In this document: positions 61,301 to 63,645 of the stretch, piece by piece
How positions within the stretch are numbered: the first letter of the stretch is position 1
How the letters are laid out: each line of letters opens with the position of its first letter
Assembly (NCBI RefSeq): GCF_000002075.1
Contig: NW_004797575.1
Coordinates: forward strand, 680,525-744,524
Source: Aplysia californica
Taxonomy: Eukaryota
Direction: 5' to 3'
Length of the DNA: 64,000 nt
Notes under the pieces: model-generated
Seen by the model: the letters and a program-made list of their open reading frames with translations, nothing else
Databases searched by the model: none
Told to the model about the DNA's origin: nothing
Position numbers and translations under genes: made by a program

Positions 61301-63645
61301 GAAAAAAAATCAAGATTTTTTTGCTTATAAATGCATATTTTTACTGGCTATCAGATACACGAAGTGTTTTCGACCAAAACCCAACACATATTTCATGAAA
61401 GCCACCAAAAAATCTTCTTTTTACAAATGTTCGTGTGTGCAGCAGCATTTTAAAAAAAAGCTGATTTTCTCAAAAGTGCTAAAATGGATGTAGCGGGTTT
61501 TGCATCTCAGCCCCTCATATAATAATTTAATTTTAAAATCCCAGTTTTTTCCTACTCTTTGCTTTTATTAAAAATTATCGGTAATAACAGGGCATCACAT
61601 GTATAAAAAGTAAGAGAGAGAGAGACAGAGAGAGAGAGAGAGAGAGAGAGAGAGAGAGAGAGAGTAACGCAGTGATTGAGCAAGCCCACGCAAGCCACGC
61701 TACTGCTGCAAGCACACGCATCGGGAGAAGCGAGAGAGGGCTGCGGTGTGCTGCAGACTTTGGTCTTCTTGCCCTAAGCCTAGCTACACGCGTGCGTAAT
61801 GTGTCATGCATAGGCCTGCCAATGGCCAAAACCCCCGTTCATGGGTACTTGTGGCAAGGGAAACTACCAATGAATAAATACAGCTGGATTAGTCCACAAA
61901 TGCTGAATTCCCTTGCATTTCTGATTTAACATGGATCGGATATAACAGGACTTTTTCTATGATCCCACCATCCCTGTTACATCAGGTTTCCACTGTAGAT
62001 AGTATTTGTATAGCGCAAATCCCCGCTCAACAGCAAGCTCTTTGCACTTCATAATCTATACTATATTTCCTCACCTAAAGAGTCCACTACACGAATATTT
62101 TATCCCACTCACAAAAGAAAAAAATCTAACCTCTGTCCAGTTCACAGTCCACCTCCTTGCCCTCATGGAACCATTTGGCCACACAGGCTCCGCAGAAACT
62201 GATGCGGCACTCAGCCTCAGGGAAAGCCTTGCACACCGCACCAGCGCACGGGTTCTCATCGCACACCGCAAGGTCAGCGTCACACTCGCAAGACGTCAGG
62301 AACATTCGGGTGTTAAAGCAGAAGCGGCTAGATACTCCCGTCTGCATGTCTGGAAGCTTCACAGGTACCATAGCTGTAGAGACCAAAGGCGCGCTCATAT
62401 GACCTTATGCAGTTTGGAGTGCCGTAAAACTCATCGCTTATTAAACTAAAGAGATCAAAGAGCAAACAAAAAAGACATATTCACCAGCTGATACTGGGCA
62501 TAATACTGTATCGTATCTAATGAAGAGAATCTTTGTGCATGCAAGCTGGCCAAACTCAAGAATCCTTTGTGTGAGTTTTCTGATCCAAGTTTTATTTTAT
62601 CATTTTCTATATACTACAGAATTCATATAGGTATAACAAAGCCTTCAAGCCCCTAACATATTGAAAATATAATGTGACCCTGCCTCGCCCTATAAGACAG
62701 ATGATGAGACCCTCATCTTCAACAAAAGATCAGCTCTGGAAACTTTTGCTCATTAACACGCATTCTGCATGAAACTTATTTTTTCAGGGCATTCTCTGCC
62801 AAGTTCTGTCTATGAGACATTTCATTGTGAACTTCCAGTCTGTGAAAAGGGCCTCTCATGAAGGTTTTCCAGATTAGGTGATCAAATGCTGGAGTGAAAT
62901 CAGGGCAACAACAACATAAATTGAAATAAATAGAAACACAACGGTAAAGCCACTTGAGCCTTCCATTTGAAGGAATTTGGACACATTCTGTCACTCTATT
63001 CTGTTATATTATCAAATACCATTAATGGCTTTGAGTGTTGAGCTGAACATTCACTGCAGCTGTGTCTTTTCAAAAAAGTTGTTTTAACCAAAAGCCTCTG
63101 ACAAGAGAATGTCAGCATTGACTCTTTAAACCCCATCGGATGCTAGGAGCGTCCTGCGGTAATAACCCTGTTTCCCATCATGCGCTTGGAACGTCCGATA
63201 CCAGTGACAACTGTTTTGTTTCGTTTAGTGCTAATTTTTGTTTGTTTTTAATAATGACTAAGCCTTTGATTTGTCCATTTAGAAGTTGGAAGCAAGCTTT
63301 TGGGTTTATAATGAGACATAGTGCGCCAGGTTTAGGTGACAGTAGAAAAAACTCCGGAAATGGTGAAAAAATCTCAGAGTTTAAAGAGTTAATCCTGACA
63401 CGTACCAGTGACATCCTTCGTTGTGGACACCCAGTTCAGGTCCAGCCAGTTGCCTGGCAAGGGAGACAAACCAGTGCATGTTCGAGCCAGTGACATCAGA
63501 AAGCTCTTTGGTTGCCGAACAAGTACAGAATGTAGACGATACGAGTGTATTGGAGAAAACGGTCCTTGGAAATAGAAGCTGCAGCCATCCTTGTCTACAC
63601 CAGTTTTGTAGAAGCCGTACTGATCCAGGCCTTGTCTTGTGAGCC
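4150..63645 (-). CDS. KCP: Giant multi-exon kielin/chordin-like protein with N-terminal EGF, Kunitz, G[YF][DN] repeats and pseudo-tyrosinase domain (5' partial; 52 exons, ~3,210 aa in window)
   Basis: 52 GT-AG exons with compatible phases at every junction, 9,644 coding nt. Domain order: GYD repeats, unnamed module, EGF, Kunitz, GYD repeats, tyrosinase fold, GYD repeats, unnamed module, 31 VWC, VWD (GDPH, CGLCG), C8, TIL, TAG. The KCP symbol rests on domain architecture only. Confidence 0.88.
4515..4640 (-). mobile_element. RTE-type LINE 3' end
   Basis: Reverse complement resembles 21432-21601; (GAT)n tail. Confidence 0.55.
5046..5226 (-). CDS. Exon 51: C8 domain
   Basis: [27 protein letters not shown]...[20 protein letters not shown]; phases 0/1. 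Confidence 0.92.
5975..7297. mobile_element. TTAA-flanked MITE (family of 33306-33618) interrupted by a nested element
   Basis: Flanks 5975-6068 and 7111-7297 match the reverse complement of 33306-33618. Confidence 0.6.
6065..7111. mobile_element. ~1.05-kb non-autonomous TTAA-specific (piggyBac-like) DNA transposon
   Basis: TTAA|CTCATTCGCGAC...GTAGCGAATGAG|TTAC inverted termini; no transposase ORF. Confidence 0.7.
7463..7573 (-). CDS. Exon 50: VWD-C8 linker
   Basis: [37 protein letters not shown]; phases 0/0. Confidence 0.88.
8480..8601 (-). CDS. Exon 49: VWD end
   Basis: [22 protein letters not shown]...FGNSWK; phases 1/0. Confidence 0.92.
9267..9411 (-). CDS. Exon 48: VWD
   Basis: [16 protein letters not shown]...[14 protein letters not shown]; phases 0/1. 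Confidence 0.92.
9760..10020. mobile_element. Partial copy of the ~430-bp GTGAAATCAGGCGC MITE family
   Basis: Matches 10354-10791 and 24725-25163. Confidence 0.6.
10133..10247 (-). CDS. Exon 47: VWD
   Basis: [22 protein letters not shown]...LQGRDVL; phases 2/0. Confidence 0.9.
10354..10791. mobile_element. ~430-bp MITE with GTGAAATCAGGCGC subterminal inverted repeat
   Basis: About six related copies in the window. Confidence 0.7.
11217..11337 (-). CDS. Exon 46: VWD start with GDPH site
   Basis: [34 protein letters not shown]; phases 1/2. Confidence 0.93.
11844..11997 (-). CDS. Exon 45: VWC31
   Basis: [15 protein letters not shown]...GQCCPVCQK; phases 0/1. Confidence 0.92.
12158..12236. 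repeat. (GA)n microsatellite within degenerate GA-rich tandem units (12005-12480)
   Basis: Direct reading. Confidence 0.9.
12990..13790 (+). mobile_element. Decayed non-LTR retrotransposon RNase H region (I/Nimb/Ingi-type)
   Basis: [10 protein letters not shown]...(frameshifts)...EAITKALEW...LITDS...[15 protein letters not shown] motifs. Confidence 0.8.
13819..13965 (-). CDS. Exon 44: VWC30/31
   Basis: [11 protein letters not shown]...[23 protein letters not shown]; phases 0/0. Confidence 0.92.
14328..14502 (-). mobile_element. Short SINE-like repeat with LINE-type tail
   Basis: Related copies at 15264-15640 (split), 34005-34185, 42270-42390, 52497-52665, 60880-61050. Confidence 0.6.
14915..15003 (-). 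CDS. Exon 43: VWC30 N-half
   Basis: [30 protein letters not shown]; phases 1/0. Confidence 0.9.
15310..15570 (+). mobile_element. RTE-type LINE 3' fragment nested in a SINE-like repeat
   Basis: [25 protein letters not shown] motif; (GAT)n-type tail; flanked by gtgccaaa/gcgccaaa. Confidence 0.75.
15662..15764 (-). CDS. Exon 42: VWC29 C-half
   Basis: [34 protein letters not shown]; phases 0/1. Confidence 0.9.
16311..16393 (-). CDS. Exon 41: VWC29 N-half
   Basis: [28 protein letters not shown]; phases 1/0. Confidence 0.85.
17340..17556. mobile_element. Hairpin-type MITE with long inverted arms
   Basis: tttgctttcccatgccgcacatcttt...aaagatctgtggcattgaaaagcaaa. Confidence 0.6.
17590..17784 (-). 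CDS. Exon 40: VWC28
   Basis: [26 protein letters not shown]...[10 protein letters not shown]; phases 1/1. Confidence 0.92.
18319..18509. mobile_element. Tc1/pogo-like MITE (TA|CAGT termini)
   Basis: tacagttgaaa...ggttcgactgt; relatives at 36594-36865, 41650-41830, 52398-52775. Confidence 0.55.
18520..18693 (-). CDS. Exon 39: VWC27
   Basis: [15 protein letters not shown]...GQCCPVCP; phases 1/1. Confidence 0.92.
19350..19443 (-). CDS. Exon 38: VWC26 C-half
   Basis: [31 protein letters not shown]; phases 0/1. Confidence 0.9.
20085..20254. mobile_element. 170-bp TTAA-flanked MITE (CACTTT...AAAGTG)
   Basis: TTAA on both sides; three copies in the window. Confidence 0.75.
20288..20452 (-). CDS. 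Exon 37: VWC25/26
   Basis: [11 protein letters not shown]...[12 protein letters not shown]...CHSCTCQ; phases 0/0. Confidence 0.92.
21198..21280 (-). CDS. Exon 36: VWC25 N-half
   Basis: [27 protein letters not shown]; phases 1/0. Confidence 0.9.
21432..21601 (+). mobile_element. RTE-type LINE 3' end
   Basis: [10 protein letters not shown]...[23 protein letters not shown], then (TGA)n tail. Confidence 0.75.
21940..22033 (-). CDS. Exon 35: VWC24 C-half
   Basis: [31 protein letters not shown]; phases 0/1. Confidence 0.9.
23319..23487. mobile_element. 170-bp TTAA-flanked MITE
   Basis: TTAA|CACTTTGCAGTCAC...GTGACCGCAAAGTG|TTAA. Confidence 0.8.
23509..23679 (-). CDS. Exon 34: VWC23/24
   Basis: [11 protein letters not shown]...[13 protein letters not shown]...CQKCRCL; phases 0/0. 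Confidence 0.92.
23748..23995. mobile_element. 248-bp piggyBac-type MITE (TTAA|CCCTATCCG...GGATAGGG|TTAA)
   Basis: Five same-length copies; TTAA target and CCC/GGG-type ends. Confidence 0.85.
24019..24272. mobile_element. MITE, same family as 850-1122
   Basis: gctacctcagaattacaaagtt...actttgtaattctgaggtagc. Confidence 0.65.
24725..25163. mobile_element. ~430-bp MITE, same family
   Basis: gaggcattgtggtgaaatcaggcgctcgtcaa...ttgacaagcgcccgatttcac. Confidence 0.7.
25185..25358 (-). CDS. Exon 33: VWC22/23
   Basis: [11 protein letters not shown]...[14 protein letters not shown]...CQECLCR; phases 0/0. Confidence 0.92.
25355..25670. repeat. 34-bp minisatellite abutting the exon 33 acceptor
   Basis: Unit approximately tgaaatgttcaaagtattaattataaacaatgca, about 9 copies. 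Confidence 0.85.
25733..26158. mobile_element. ~430-bp MITE, same family, inverted
   Basis: Ends ttgacgagcgcctggtttcaccacgatgcctcaca. Confidence 0.7.
26159..26350 (+). mobile_element. Possible tRNA-derived SINE
   Basis: tggttagg...gagttcaattccc tRNA-like head. Confidence 0.4.
26708..26878 (-). CDS. Exon 32: VWC21/22
   Basis: [11 protein letters not shown]...[13 protein letters not shown]...CSQCVCE; phases 0/0. Confidence 0.92.
27141..27388. mobile_element. 248-bp piggyBac-type MITE
   Basis: Copy of 23748-23995. Confidence 0.85.
27852..28037 (-). CDS. Exon 31: VWC20/21
   Basis: [11 protein letters not shown]...[19 protein letters not shown]...CNECYCR; phases 0/0. Confidence 0.9.
28071..28250. 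mobile_element. ~180-bp MITE (CTGTCCCCG...CGGGGACAG)
   Basis: TIR; second copy at 42759-42928. Confidence 0.75.
28295..28357. repeat. (AAT)n microsatellite
   Basis: Direct reading. Confidence 0.95.
29129..29297. mobile_element. 170-bp TTAA-flanked MITE
   Basis: TTAA|CACTTTGTAGTCAC...GTGACTGCAAAGTG|TTAA. Confidence 0.8.
29345..29684 (-). CDS. Exon 30: VWC18-20
   Basis: [13 protein letters not shown]...[15 protein letters not shown]...RNCQ; phases 2/0. Confidence 0.92.
29660..29968. repeat. ~38-bp minisatellite containing the exon 30 acceptor
   Basis: Unit approximately cacttcaccgtaggcgcatctgaacattaataaaacgt. Confidence 0.85.
30701..31034 (-). CDS. Exon 29: VWC16-18
   Basis: [10 protein letters not shown]...[13 protein letters not shown]...PCVTCR; phases 1/2. 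Confidence 0.92.
31424..31623 (-). CDS. Exon 28: VWC15/16
   Basis: [13 protein letters not shown]...[13 protein letters not shown]...CQECVCSK; phases 2/1. Confidence 0.92.
32281..32509 (-). CDS. Exon 27: VWC14/15
   Basis: [12 protein letters not shown]...[13 protein letters not shown]...AAADR; phases 1/2. Confidence 0.92.
32784..32868 (-). CDS. Exon 26: VWC13 C-half
   Basis: [28 protein letters not shown]; phases 0/1. Confidence 0.9.
33306..33618. mobile_element. TTAA-flanked MITE
   Basis: ttaa|ctctttatctc...gagataaagag|ataa. Confidence 0.65.
33690..33872 (-). CDS. Exon 25: VWC12/13
   Basis: [11 protein letters not shown]...[11 protein letters not shown]...CEDCLCRQ; phases 0/0. Confidence 0.92.
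34750..35280. mobile_element. MITE, same family, inverted and interrupted
   Basis: tgtcacaacgcggaggaatcaggcgc...gagcacctgattttacacgacgcctcaca. Confidence 0.6.
35304..35480 (-). CDS. Exon 24: VWC11/12
   Basis: [11 protein letters not shown]...[14 protein letters not shown]...CQQCICA; phases 0/0. Confidence 0.92.
36323..36502 (-). CDS. Exon 23: VWC10/11
   Basis: [11 protein letters not shown]...[15 protein letters not shown]...CSVCVCK; phases 0/0. Confidence 0.92.
36594..36865. mobile_element. Tc1/pogo-like MITE with internal 33-bp x3 repeat
   Basis: tacagtcaaaactgtctaag...gagcaggttcgactgta. Confidence 0.65.
37892..38139. mobile_element. 248-bp piggyBac-type MITE (inverted)
   Basis: Copy inserted in a splice-junction repeat unit. 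Confidence 0.85.
38231..38410 (-). CDS. Exon 22: VWC9/10
   Basis: [13 protein letters not shown]...[12 protein letters not shown]...CQICTCK; phases 0/0. Confidence 0.92.
40017..40195 (-). CDS. Exon 21: VWC8/9
   Basis: [12 protein letters not shown]...[14 protein letters not shown]...CQKCVCQ; phases 1/0. Confidence 0.92.
40183..40487. repeat. ~40-bp minisatellite containing the exon 21 acceptor
   Basis: Unit approximately agtacttctcctggaaagtagagatatggaggaatatct. Confidence 0.85.
41248..41328 (-). CDS. Exon 20: VWC8 N-half
   Basis: [27 protein letters not shown]; phases 1/1. Confidence 0.88.
41979..42167 (-). CDS. Exon 19: VWC7
   Basis: [12 protein letters not shown]...GNCCPVCK; phases 1/1. 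Confidence 0.92.
42759..42928. mobile_element. ~170-bp MITE, same family as 28071-28250
   Basis: ctgtccccgtcg...ccgcggagacag. Confidence 0.75.
42968..43144 (-). CDS. Exon 18: VWC6
   Basis: [14 protein letters not shown]...GDCCSLCT; phases 1/1. Confidence 0.92.
43513..43698 (-). CDS. Exon 17: VWC5
   Basis: [15 protein letters not shown]...GECCPTLCP; phases 1/1. Confidence 0.92.
43852..44054. repeat. 29-bp minisatellite x7
   Basis: acactgcacagctacatgacacactgatc. Confidence 0.92.
44657..44830 (-). CDS. Exon 16: VWC4
   Basis: [14 protein letters not shown]...GQCCPACGL; phases 1/1. Confidence 0.92.
   Translation of the reverse strand, partial: RVCTREKCTEKGPSFPLSPAPHASVSAAMPSVASWIVRRSHVPILSLRLVSAVQLVD
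44928..45117. mobile_element. Tc1/pogo-like MITE
   Basis: TA|CAGTGCAGCCTCTCT...AGAGAGGCTGCACTG|TA perfect TIR with TA target. Confidence 0.8.
46048..46141 (-). CDS. Exon 15: VWC3 C-half
   Basis: [31 protein letters not shown]; phases 0/1. Confidence 0.9.
46163..46410. mobile_element. 248-bp piggyBac-type MITE (inverted)
   Basis: TTAACCCTATCCGTACG...CGTACGGATAGGGTTAA; about 20 bp from the exon 15 acceptor. Confidence 0.88.
46885..47255. repeat. 25/36-bp minisatellite made of the exon 14 end plus donor site
   Basis: Unit acacagtcctgacattacctggcac; 13 ttacctgg occurrences including the real donor. Confidence 0.93.
47234..47478 (-). CDS. Exon 14: VWC2/3
   Basis: [12 protein letters not shown]...[30 protein letters not shown]; phases 1/0. 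Confidence 0.92.
48321..48414 (-). CDS. Exon 13: VWC1 C-half (intact copy)
   Basis: [31 protein letters not shown]; phases 0/1. Confidence 0.88.
48483..48653 (-). pseudogene. Truncated duplicate of exon 14
   Basis: Matches 47308-47478 and keeps the acceptor; breaks after GQCCP and runs into the intron upstream of exon 13. Confidence 0.8.
49496..49590 (-). pseudogene. Frameshifted duplicate of exon 13
   Basis: 95 nt versus 94 nt; gcatcccggggataa versus gcatcacgggataa (+1 nt), plus a Cys-to-Trp change. Confidence 0.75.
50057..50304. mobile_element. 248-bp piggyBac-type MITE
   Basis: Copy; about 20 bp from the exon 12 donor. Confidence 0.85.
50324..50403 (-). CDS. Exon 12: VWC1 N-half
   Basis: [27 protein letters not shown]; phases 1/0. 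Confidence 0.9.
50418..50668. mobile_element. MITE with TATGTGA.G.G.GCTGACAAAATGAGTTA inverted ends
   Basis: atatgtgaagtgtgctgacaaaatgagtta...taactcattttgtcagctcgcctcacatat. Confidence 0.75.
51185..51277 (-). CDS. Exon 11: Cys-rich CxxxxCGxC module (copy 2, C-half)
   Basis: [31 protein letters not shown]; phases 1/1. Confidence 0.88.
51525..51830 (+). mobile_element. SINE/LINE-derived repeat, same family as 1281-1630
   Basis: Reverse complement aligns to 1281-1630; ends ctaaaactaaactaaaacta. Confidence 0.65.
52279..52373 (-). CDS. Exon 10: Cys-rich module (copy 2, N-half)
   Basis: (R)[31 protein letters not shown]; phases 2/1 link exon 9 to exon 11; this frame is not in the ORF track. Confidence 0.85.
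52829..52909. repeat. (TG)n microsatellite
   Basis: Direct reading. Confidence 0.95.
52915..53230. promoter_or_regulatory. CpG-rich island; candidate internal promoter or enhancer
   Basis: Unique GC- and CpG-rich tract with a GGGGCGGG box in an AT-rich intron, bracketed by microsatellites. Confidence 0.35.
54075..55550 (-). CDS. Exon 9 (1,476 nt): tyrosinase-fold domain without Cu ligands, G[YF][DN] repeats and unnamed domain
   Basis: [16 protein letters not shown]...IPYYDWT...CLRRRF...VGGHM...[19 protein letters not shown], then [18 protein letters not shown]...; phases 2/2. Confidence 0.92.
56369..56597 (-). CDS. Exon 8: Cys-rich half-VWC-like segment and tyrosinase N-terminal motif
   Basis: ...[23 protein letters not shown]...[15 protein letters not shown](R); phases 1/2. 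Confidence 0.9.
56674..56944 (-). mobile_element. 5'-truncated LINE insertion with CCHC knuckle, (CAA)n tail and 14-bp TSD
   Basis: [18 protein letters not shown]; aggtcctactgatt at 56674-56687 and 56931-56944. Confidence 0.88.
57272..57650. repeat. ~190-bp tandem duplication
   Basis: aatgcagaagaagagcaaa.gaatct... occurs twice. Confidence 0.75.
57686..57801 (-). CDS. Exon 7: end of GYD tract and Cys linker
   Basis: [38 protein letters not shown]; phases 2/1. Confidence 0.87.
58150..58412 (+). mobile_element. tRNA-derived SINE with Deu/Nin-like core
   Basis: A-box-like ggcggagcagtt, B-box-like ggttcaagct, core ccacccagcagtaatgggtacctgac, ttttacttt tail. Confidence 0.7.
58434..58599 (-). CDS. 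Exon 6: G[YF][DN] repeats
   Basis: [36 protein letters not shown]...GYDPEGFN; phases 1/2. Confidence 0.9.
59118..59227 (-). CDS. Exon 5: G[YF][DN] repeats
   Basis: [36 protein letters not shown]; phases 2/1. Confidence 0.87.
59996..60203 (-). CDS. Exon 4: Kunitz/BPTI domain body
   Basis: [44 protein letters not shown] then KGSCC...GFDSQGYD; phases 1/2. Confidence 0.93.
60651..60809 (-). CDS. Exon 3: EGF domain and Kunitz start
   Basis: [14 protein letters not shown]...[27 protein letters not shown]; phases 1/1. Confidence 0.93.
61257..61520. mobile_element. MITE, same family as 2939-3142
   Basis: tataaggggatgagatgcaaaac...gttttgcatctcagcccctcatat. Confidence 0.7.
61614..61664. repeat. (GA)n microsatellite
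   Basis: Direct reading. Confidence 0.95.
62131..62373 (-). CDS. Exon 2: Cys-rich CxxxxCGxC module (copy 1)
   Basis: ...[66 protein letters not shown]; phases 1/1. Confidence 0.88.
63118..63392. mobile_element. TTAA-type MITE
   Basis: ttga|ctctttaaac...gtttaaagag|ttaa. Confidence 0.65.
63406..63645 (-). CDS. Exon 1 in window: end of a GYD tract and unnamed domain (copy 1)
   Basis: [31 protein letters not shown]...[20 protein letters not shown]...; atcag| acceptor, |gtacgt donor; phases 1/1; this frame is not in the ORF track. Confidence 0.85.

Follow-up and report, generated by a model that had tools for sequence, protein, structure and literature searches.

Gene model, domain order and splicing

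The window, the whole stretch of 64,000 nucleotides of Aplysia californica DNA that was analysed, carries part of a kielin/chordin-like gene (LamG, about 27 VWC domains and VWD); all features given here lie on the minus strand. This gene holds two cassettes in tandem, and the segment 62131..63645 is best explained, with good probability, as the end of the first one, made up of its cap and CGxC domains. Architecture and database names point to orthology with mammalian KCP. The preliminary description had not named the host gene as kielin. Positions on contig G000:C305 equal the window number plus 680524, and this numbering is continued past the window edge.

A 24-exon model gave an open frame of 1898 residues, with 22 GT-AG introns and one GC-AG intron. 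Contigs from runs X1 and X2 showed all eight introns modelled between 54000 and 63700 as spliced out, and those from X3 seven of the eight, the three runs belonging to a single study. An X1 contig joined 64722 to 63645 with contiguous coordinates, and copies 1 and 2 were joined by one spliced contig, which places them in the same transcript. No depth on exons of the cassette gene was seen in the poly(A) runs X20 and X21.

Upstream of the window, the gene model comprises a LamG/TSPN-like domain (74372-73234), a coiled-coil-like stretch with the first VWC (73043-71416), EGF 1, Kunitz 1 (P1 Asp), a hairpin and a VWC-like domain (71104-69054), tyrosinase-like copy 1 (68344-65511) and GYD repeats 1 (65527-64722). 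The window's part of an intron, 63646..64000, links to 13 modelled exons past the edge. The exon 63406..63645, spliced in X1, X2 and X3, encodes the last part of GYD repeats 1 together with cap copy 1 (63601-63406), while the exon 62131..62373 encodes CGxC copy 1 (from 62326) and closes module 1 at a phase-1 intron.

Module 2 starts at 59996..60809 with EGF 2 (Pfam E 4.8e-7) and Kunitz 2 (P1 Ser; Pfam E 1.9e-16). GYD repeats inserted in a CC-hairpin domain and then a VWC-like domain follow at 56369..59227, on exons 59227-59118, 58599-58434, 57801-57686 and 56597-56369. Tyrosinase-like copy 2 occupies 54842..56415, GYD repeats 2 (54823-54389) and cap copy 2 (54388-54182) occupy 54182..54823, and CGxC copy 2 lies at 51185..52373, where module 2 closes at a phase-1 donor. 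Both modules are flanked by phase-1 introns. The exon positions given previously, 63645-63406 and 62373-62131 for copy 1 and 55550-54075, 52373-52279 and 51277-51185 for copy 2, were reproduced.

The rest of the gene (4150..50403) consists of a long VWC array with 27 VWC stretches, a VWD with a GDPH motif (E 3e-36) and a Cys-rich end, which we take to be C8/TIL-like; P0185 maps onto this part exon by exon, the exon before the stop lying at 4374-4153. As for the signal peptide to be looked for upstream, a search for the first exon of the gene found none, and hydrophobic leaders were present at the start of orthologues such as P0182, P0189 and P0197.

Duplicated cassettes and their copper ligands

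A twofold unit of GYD repeats, cap and CGxC had been described. The duplication stood and the unit size did not: the repeated unit is the whole cassette, EGF-Kunitz-hairpin-VWC-like-tyrosinase fold-GYD repeats-cap-CGxC, of 700-900 residues each. Module 1 (aa 292-1014) and module 2 (aa 1015-1898) were identical at 204 of 627 positions (33%, E 8e-115), with a separate match between their EGF-Kunitz parts (E 3e-23). When the copies were compared using 1000 shuffles per comparison, the caps scored 58 (14/59 identical; shuffle mean 23.7, maximum 44, z 8.1), the CGxC domains 115 (20/60 identical; maximum 59, z 16.7) and both together 138 (maximum 51, z 23.9). The self-alignment was significant in all three comparisons, the observed scores being reached by 0 of 1000 shuffles.

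The cap is mainly helical, with the pattern C-x-Y/F-x-GP ... R-x-C-x-x-L-x-x-L-P-x-x-W. It corresponded to no Pfam family, and a sequence comparison with PDB gave nothing at E<=10; in the stored set it matched 57 of 351 proteins, the bacterial proteins with GYD repeats not being among them. The CGxC domain is Cys-rich with a closing beta-hairpin, and its copy 1 weakly resembles the snail carboxypeptidase inhibitor NvCI, a tentative likeness with one counter-result. Of the two domains previously left unnamed, CGxC has thereby gained a tentative relative, and the cap is still without a name.

The assignment of copy 2 to the tyrosinase fold was supported by PF00264 (E 8.9e-21). The second tyrosinase-like domain predicted upstream on the minus strand was found at G000:C305:746644-748820 (E 3.5e-14 to 6.8e-4), starting 1.5 kb past the window edge, with PF00264 on all three exons tested. 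Structure prediction suggests that module 1 keeps the fold despite ligand loss: the limpet module-1 model matched bacterial tyrosinases at Z 29-30 and rmsd 1.7-1.8. The prediction for the limpet homologue had a pTM of 0.81 over 632 aa; the window's own copy-2 model was weaker (pLDDT 71, pTM 0.64).

The proposal that an upstream copy could have retained its histidines, forming an active/dead pair, was not supported. In copy 1 the six ligand positions are occupied by Y,S,H,I,H,H (3/6 His), in copy 2 by Y,A,N,A,Q,M (0/6 His; 55477, 55453, 55426, 55108, 55096, 55030), so that by the canonical site the pair is dead/dead. No animal domain among the 62 counted, after removal of four near-duplicate records and the haemocyanin control, had more than three of the six copper histidines. 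In the control, six His fell in the same columns in 6/8 units, the other two being cut before H1. H1 was Tyr and H4 was lost in 29/29 module-1 domains, none exceeding 3/6 His; H4 and H6 were lost in 33/33 module-2 domains, some of which (Lingula, three tunicates) kept H1, H3, H5 and the His preceding H6.

A site in module 1 that is not purely dead may be entertained as a lead. A purely dead site leaves unexplained the conserved non-canonical positions of this module, His at H1+3 (25/29) and His or Glu at H1+6 (24/29); copy 1 itself carries extra His at 68221 and 68212. The canonical six-His site is absent from all 29 module-1 domains. Since half or all of the six copper histidines are missing, the likely role of each cassette is that of a binding or structural part, and, judged from sequence, both are likely non-catalytic binding or scaffolding units and ancient pseudoenzymes.

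Distribution and origin

Across molluscs, chelicerates, hemichordates and tunicates, each of the two copies formed a clade of its own. Among vertebrates the models had copy 2 only, and among echinoderms and amphioxus copy 1 only. Choanoflagellate membrane proteins carry the same cassette with all six His and are sister to the animal clade; among the choanoflagellate-type proteins, six His occurred in 5/7 (3/5 of the named ones), cap and CGxC in 5/7 and a C-terminal hydrophobic stretch in 6/7. In trees drawn with midpoint rooting and with outgroups taken from top hits, support was 100/99 for choanoflagellates plus animals, 100/97 for animals, 100/98 for module 1 and 98/95 for module 2. No named cnidarian or sponge member was among the matches found, so the choanoflagellate-to-bilaterian route is unseen. 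A single passing mention was found in the literature searched.

The animal cassette likely descends from a six-His enzyme still present in the single-celled relatives of animals. The ancestor of animals and choanoflagellates would have had a surface-anchored tyrosinase cassette, whose phase 1-1 exon block may have been transferred to a place between kielin VWC 1 and VWC 2. The cassette would have lost histidine 4 and the two-copper site, and its duplication would predate the protostome/deuterostome split.

Proposed function and conservation

Taken as a whole, the data are best explained, with fairly high probability, by non-catalytic twin tyrosinase-fold cassettes in a likely BMP-modulating kielin-like protein. 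The limpet prediction, with its pTM of 0.81, suggests a single compact body formed by hairpin, tyrosinase core, GYD repeats, cap and CGxC, in which cap and CGxC would be structural accessories of the core. This body may have been retained for protein or matrix contacts that would position the VWC array. Vertebrate KCP enhances BMP signalling, according to passages in two sources (PMC11321374, PMC6750614). By analogy, the VWC and VWD part would bind BMP. The protein is probably secreted and likely modulates BMP signalling.

Compared with orthologues, the tyrosinase copies showed 39-77% identity (7/7 tested) and LamG 23-41% (the five that aligned). Exon differences in a selected sample were synonymous in 12 of 17 cases and conservative in the other five. 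The contrast in identity and the mostly synonymous differences were counted for selection on the cassette.

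Gene structure and repetition of the cassette

The gene was modelled on the minus strand with 24 exons, running from 74372 down to 51186 (numbers above 64000 continue the window numbering upstream, and adding 680524 gives the place on the contig), and with an open frame of 1898 aa on which residue numbers such as H536 and Y533 are counted. Its introns comprise 22 GT-AG and one GC-AG. The model contains two tandem cassettes, each with the order EGF, Kunitz, hairpin, VWC-like, tyrosinase fold, GYD repeats, cap and CGxC. Module 1 (aa 292-1014) and module 2 (aa 1015-1898) are 33% identical over 627 residues (E 8e-115), the EGF and Kunitz domains being paired as well.

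The preliminary description had paired two domains, here termed cap and CGxC, between the copies, and both pairings hold (z 8.1 for the cap pair, 16.7 for the CGxC pair and 23.9 combined, with 0 of 1000 shuffles reaching any of these scores). The unit it proposed, from the GYD repeats to CGxC, is indeed repeated, but its extent was drawn too narrowly, since the whole module recurs, EGF and Kunitz included. The tyrosinase-like unit that it predicted farther upstream was located: a search of the Aplysia genome with copy 2 returned four matches, namely itself and three exons 2-4 kb past the window end. In the gene model, tyrosinase copy 1 occupies the minus-strand exons 68357-68141, 67666-67463, 66416-66104 and 65527-65357.

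Splicing was assessed by comparing the exons between LamG and CGxC copy 2 with contigs and reads from several sequencing runs. In run X1, a single 6052-nt contig lacked all eight introns between 54073 and 63647, and the same contig (in length, depth and coordinates) ran on contiguously through the upstream exons, including the junction at the window edge. Since this one spliced contig spans both modules, neither an assembly artefact nor a pair of separate genes accounts for them. The joints within the window were reproduced in eight of eight cases in X2 and seven of eight in X3; these three runs come from a single study and are presumed to be RNA, although the skipped parts do have splice ends. 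Exon depth was absent in the raw poly(A) runs X20 and X21, and the contigs of X5 and X14 were unspliced. The GC-AG intron lies within tyrosinase copy 1 (68141; L005 5141) and is spliced in the X1 contig.

Each cassette is flanked by phase-1 introns on both sides and could therefore be gained, duplicated or lost in frame. The tyrosinase core, GYD repeats and cap occupy one 1476-base exon in module 2 (55550-54075), whereas the same part of module 1 is split over six exons (68357-63406); no intron position inside the modules is held in common.

The layout of the host gene is that of a kielin/chordin-like gene in which two cassettes follow the first VWC as an insertion; a long VWC array and a VWD lie downstream of them. 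Beyond the window, upstream of the cassettes, the minus strand encodes a LamG-like domain (74372-73234), followed by a coiled-coil-like stretch and one VWC. This N-terminal LamG/TSPN-like domain matched PF02210 below the cut-off (E 0.0066) and matched six of six orthologue N-termini. The C-terminal VWD was recognised by PF00094 (E 3e-36), and has a GDPH motif, and VWF and mucin matches continue to the end of the protein. No convincing first exon with a signal peptide was found in about 70 kb upstream, a region with 12 N gaps. The coiled-coil stretch (72925-71981) is about 7 residues shorter at the modelled junction than in the Mactra protein P0001; a longer exon form is possible, and no canonical donor fits it.

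The public protein P0185 (uncharacterized protein LOC101845560, Aplysia californica, 3927 aa) corresponds to the locus exon for exon, with 90-100% identity, and contains, by Pfam, 27 VWC stretches, two tyrosinase stretches and one VWD. It is without the LamG part and differs from the 24-exon model at three junctions; at the two of these that were readable, the X1 contig sided with the 24-exon model. A block of about 1175 bases at 47308-49659 is present as two tandem copies of 99-100% identity, each with a 239-base N run, which looks like an assembly duplication. For the exons neighbouring this block (aa about 1667-1830), P0185 is in the wrong frame. In the stretch 46886-47256, degenerate tandem copies of the 3' end of a VWC exon come after its donor, giving several look-alike splice donors.

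Kielin/KCP likewise has a LamG-like N-terminus, a long chordin-type VWC array and a C-terminal VWD with a Cys-rich tail. Many orthologue database records, including those of fish, bear the name kielin/chordin-like, and orthology to tetrapod KCP is putative, drawn from architecture and these names. Frog and mammal kielin are not known to carry the cassette. The Aplysia gene differs by two cassettes of 720-880 aa between its first and second VWC. Xenopus Kcp has a LaminG domain ahead of its cysteine-rich elements (PMC6750614, accessible part), and mammalian Kcp is described with 18 cysteine-rich domains, a tyrosinase part being unmentioned in the available sections of PMC11321374.

Distribution and origin

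Cassette counts per lineage were taken from predicted proteins, not from DNA. Two cassettes were present in 14 of 14 long proteins among the homologue matches listed, and occur in bivalve, gastropod, cephalopod, brachiopod, scorpion, spider, hemichordate and tunicate proteins; the Limulus model begins at the CGxC end of module 1. One type-1 cassette was found in at least five echinoderm and at least three amphioxus records, and one type-2 cassette in hagfish, shark, sturgeon and teleost records, while prawn and krill fragments are further members. Among the homologue matches listed and 30 of 150 representatives, no member was named as cnidarian, sponge, insect or tetrapod, which is weak evidence of absence. 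The cassette is present in chelicerates, crustaceans, a hemichordate, echinoderms, amphioxus and vertebrates, where PMC3658974, in its accessible part, reports no alpha-subclass. In the tunicate orthologues P0190, P0191 and P0192, the single EGF before Kunitz 1 is enlarged to 13-17 EGF matches.

Seven proteins carry parts of the same cassette without a VWC array, five of them named choanoflagellate proteins among the representatives listed. Choanoflagellate members include Salpingoeca rosetta PTSG_11343, PTSG_12389 and 'mantle protein 9', as well as proteins of S. urceolata and Hartaetosiga. Their domain order is that of the animal cassette (Kunitz, hairpin with GYD insert, VWC-like, tyrosinase, GYD, cap, CGxC), but they have a single cassette, two to three CGxC copies and no VWC array. 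All six copper-ligand histidines are intact in five of the seven (three of the five named), and cap and CGxC were detected in five of seven (E about 1e-7 to 1e-13). Six of the seven end in a strongly hydrophobic stretch, which is likely a membrane anchor. Kazal-like domains occur in two named proteins below the Pfam cut-off and in one other above it. A literature search found no functional study of these choanoflagellate proteins.

In a 38-row tree, the choanoflagellate-type and animal domains separated from 15 other tyrosinases at 100/99, with support of 100/97 for the animal group, 100/98 for module 1 and 98/95 for module 2; the choanoflagellate type forms the sister branch. A 59-row quick tree was consistent, its joint choanoflagellate-animal branch receiving 88. 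Because both trees were only midpoint-rooted, the direction of evolution was read from ligand state and species tree rather than from the root. A recent mollusc-specific duplication of the cassette was excluded by the trees.

The cap and CGxC domains

A limpet module 1 (P0207, 632 aa, 22-row alignment) was modelled with pLDDT 78 and pTM 0.81. The cap is predicted to be mostly helical and CGxC to close in a beta-hairpin, and the pTM suggests that both would pack with the tyrosinase core. The preliminary description had left the two domains unnamed. Pfam, NCBIfam and the PDB sequences contained nothing that matched the cap, and CGxC gave only sub-threshold zinc-finger-like Pfam matches (24 members). 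Since whole-module fold searches were filled by tyrosinases, the lack of a match for the cap is no evidence of a new fold. The predicted helical cap, without a Pfam match, may differ from the shielding domains of haemocyanin and of plant and fungal tyrosinases, in which a C-terminal beta-sandwich lies over the active site.

For CGxC, a weak resemblance to NvCI, the metallocarboxypeptidase inhibitor of Nerita versicolor (PDB 4A94, 5MRV), was observed. A 24-row CGxC profile, which includes the folded limpet domain as a row, retrieved NvCI (4a94_C) as the best of 177,635 PDB sequences (E 0.0078), the match covering five Cys, the P-x-A-x-C stretch and the buried Trp. In a wide fold search, NvCI stood at rank 50, within noise (Z 3.4, rmsd 3.2, 43/51 aligned, 33% identity, model residues 580-624). 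With a second profile, of 16 rows drawn largely from module 2, NvCI was not among the matches at E<=10, and a single CGxC exon as PDB query missed it as well. The opening C-x(4-5)-C-P-x-x-P-x-A-x-C, a two-stranded sheet, a buried Trp and a closing V-x-C may be common to both, whereas CGxC has seven invariant Cys plus one upstream, and a CxxC turn where NvCI has a long loop. Homology between CGxC and NvCI has about an even chance.

Inhibition by NvCI depends on a free C-terminal tail of two residues (accessible parts of PMC6780499 and PMC5511257), but CGxC is internal: after copy 1 the transcript continues by splicing into EGF 2, and copy 2 ends at a splice donor. The teleost models P0009, P0199, P0201 and P0339 end with a Trp three residues past the last CGxC cysteine. 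An NvCI-like free tail is disfavoured here, as the smelt protein P0341 continues into VWC and a splice donor that was read through is the simpler account; judging from the protein models, such read-through is probably the explanation, and a gene split in teleosts may be another. With a homologue as query, the ESM Atlas gave no usable CGxC match. A protein search for further CGxC copies in the Aplysia genome found the query alone; it missed copy 2 and was therefore insensitive.

Copper ligands and the role of the cassettes

Ligand columns, set with six-histidine proteins, placed Y533, S541, H550, I653, H657 and H679 at positions H1 to H6 of copy 1, and Y, A, N, A, Q and M at those of copy 2. 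The three-His set is missing at CuA (Y,S,H in copy 1; Y,A,N in copy 2) and equally at CuB (I,H,H and A,Q,M). The active/dead pair anticipated in the preliminary description is unsupported, because six histidines are found in neither copy, and a catalytically armed upstream copy is ruled out by the same columns. Both copies keep the tyrosinase four-helix fold, as seen from PF00264 matches above the cut-off and from predicted-structure searches. In this they resemble type-3 copper proteins (alpha-subclass of Aguilera 2013), and their H1-to-H2 spacing of 8 is that of the short-spaced types a-f in the accessible text of PMC11803259. They depart from these proteins in their histidines: all 62 animal domains (29 module-1 and 33 module-2, from named animal proteins minus four near-duplicate records and haemocyanin) have at most three of the six, and histidine 4 is missing in every one. 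The tyrosinase domains are more conserved than LamG among the orthologues compared.

Both cassettes are probably non-catalytic bodies that serve for binding or spacing in a secreted kielin, while the VWC array would handle BMPs. Secretion and BMP binding would follow the pattern of kielin, and the coiled coil may form oligomers by analogy. Thrombospondin and NELL provide the analogues for coiled-coil oligomer formation. Vertebrate KCP acts on BMPs (PMC11321374 and PMC6750614, in part).

If the non-catalytic reading is true, most animal lineages sampled bear large pseudoenzyme cassettes, one or two in number and strongly conserved, and kielin of frogs and mammals, as studied, is likely a trimmed form. 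The alpha-type tyrosinase fold would then not be lost but disarmed in arthropods, echinoderms, amphioxus and vertebrates. The gene would also be a clean example of a signalling regulator that took up an enzyme cassette older than animals. The six-histidine choanoflagellate version offers a direct biochemical comparison for the animal cassettes. PF00264 is already attached to these proteins by databases; because they are listed there under tyrosinase, gene counts that take them as enzymes would be inflated. No paper describing the cassette was found in the full-text literature, most subscription papers being outside its coverage. Within the accessible portions of the sources, PMC11667028 notes in passing that isolated tyrosinase sequences are very long and bear a kielin/chordin-like domain, PMC11803259 mentions no more than a handful of chordate proteins, as type d or unclassified (section 8; four text supplements), and term look-up did not find the cassette in PMC9395347, PMC11788884, PMC10244343 or PMC9966942.

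A softened form of the active/dead pair was considered unlikely. In it, module 1 would hold a phenolic ligand or a single Zn or Cu ion by means of H536, H539, H550, H657 and H679, with Tyr533 perhaps taking part, and would so have a new activity or be a metal/redox sensor. Tyr stands at H1 in 29 of 29 module-1 domains; His at H1+3 (H536) is present in 25/29 module-1 versus 10/33 module-2 and 1/7 choanoflagellate-type domains, and His/Glu at H1+6 (H539) in 24/29 versus 2/33 and 0/7, with H3, H5 and H6 retained in 19, 20 and 20 of the 29. Yet the canonical histidines kept differ by lineage (0/6 in amphioxus, 1/6 in starfish), tunicate module 1 is without both new histidines, and the putative pocket is assigned from sequence columns. 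TYRP1 retains all six histidines, which counts against it as support for such a site. It does indicate that a metal switch is possible within the tyrosinase fold (PMC5601231, in its accessible part). A broader proposal, rather improbable as a whole, is that an ancestral bilaterian kielin acquired its twin cassette from a pre-animal surface tyrosinase, that His-x-x-His and the invariant Tyr of copy 1 would form a single-metal/phenol pocket through which BMP control responds to metal, redox or catechol signals, and that CGxC would be the ancient parent fold of snail NvCI.

It is very unlikely that the cassette is a protease-control block, in which Kunitz and an NvCI-like CGxC would shield kielin from cleavage or inhibit peptidases on release and the dead tyrosinase would be a spacer. 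The Kunitz domains pass Pfam, and the profile and structural matches of CGxC to NvCI (E 0.0078, Z 3.4) point the same way; the module-2-based profile, however, misses NvCI, the structural match ranks 50th, the inhibitory free tail is not present in an internal CGxC, and the Kunitz P1 residues are here Asp and Ser and highly variable among animals. It is highly improbable that the cassette serves as a substrate for matrix cross-linking, in which other tyrosinases would oxidise the Tyr-rich GYD repeats and so tether kielin into shell, egg case or cuticle. The repeats are dense in Tyr, and in argonaut egg cases no proteins were more abundant than kielin/chordin-like contigs, but the accessible part of the same source gives these contigs as VWC-only (bioRxiv 10.1101/2021.07.10.451900). 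Moreover, the model suggests that the repeats are folded (pLDDT about 76-89 across much of them), similar repeats occur in many bacterial proteins, helicases included, and the cassette is kept in fishes and hagfish.

Among the matches listed, GYD-type repeats about 30-53% identical to those of kielin were found in P0005 and about 100 other proteins, many of them bacterial (helicase-like, decapeptide-repeat); either homology or convergence may account for them. The repeats were left unnamed because the bacterial look-alikes either have no Pfam match or have one to Decapeptide PF25296 outside the repeats. The spider orthologues P0125 and P0126 have few or no GYD repeats between the module-1 core and the cap, with similar spacing in P0193 and P0194, and the repeats are therefore dispensable there.
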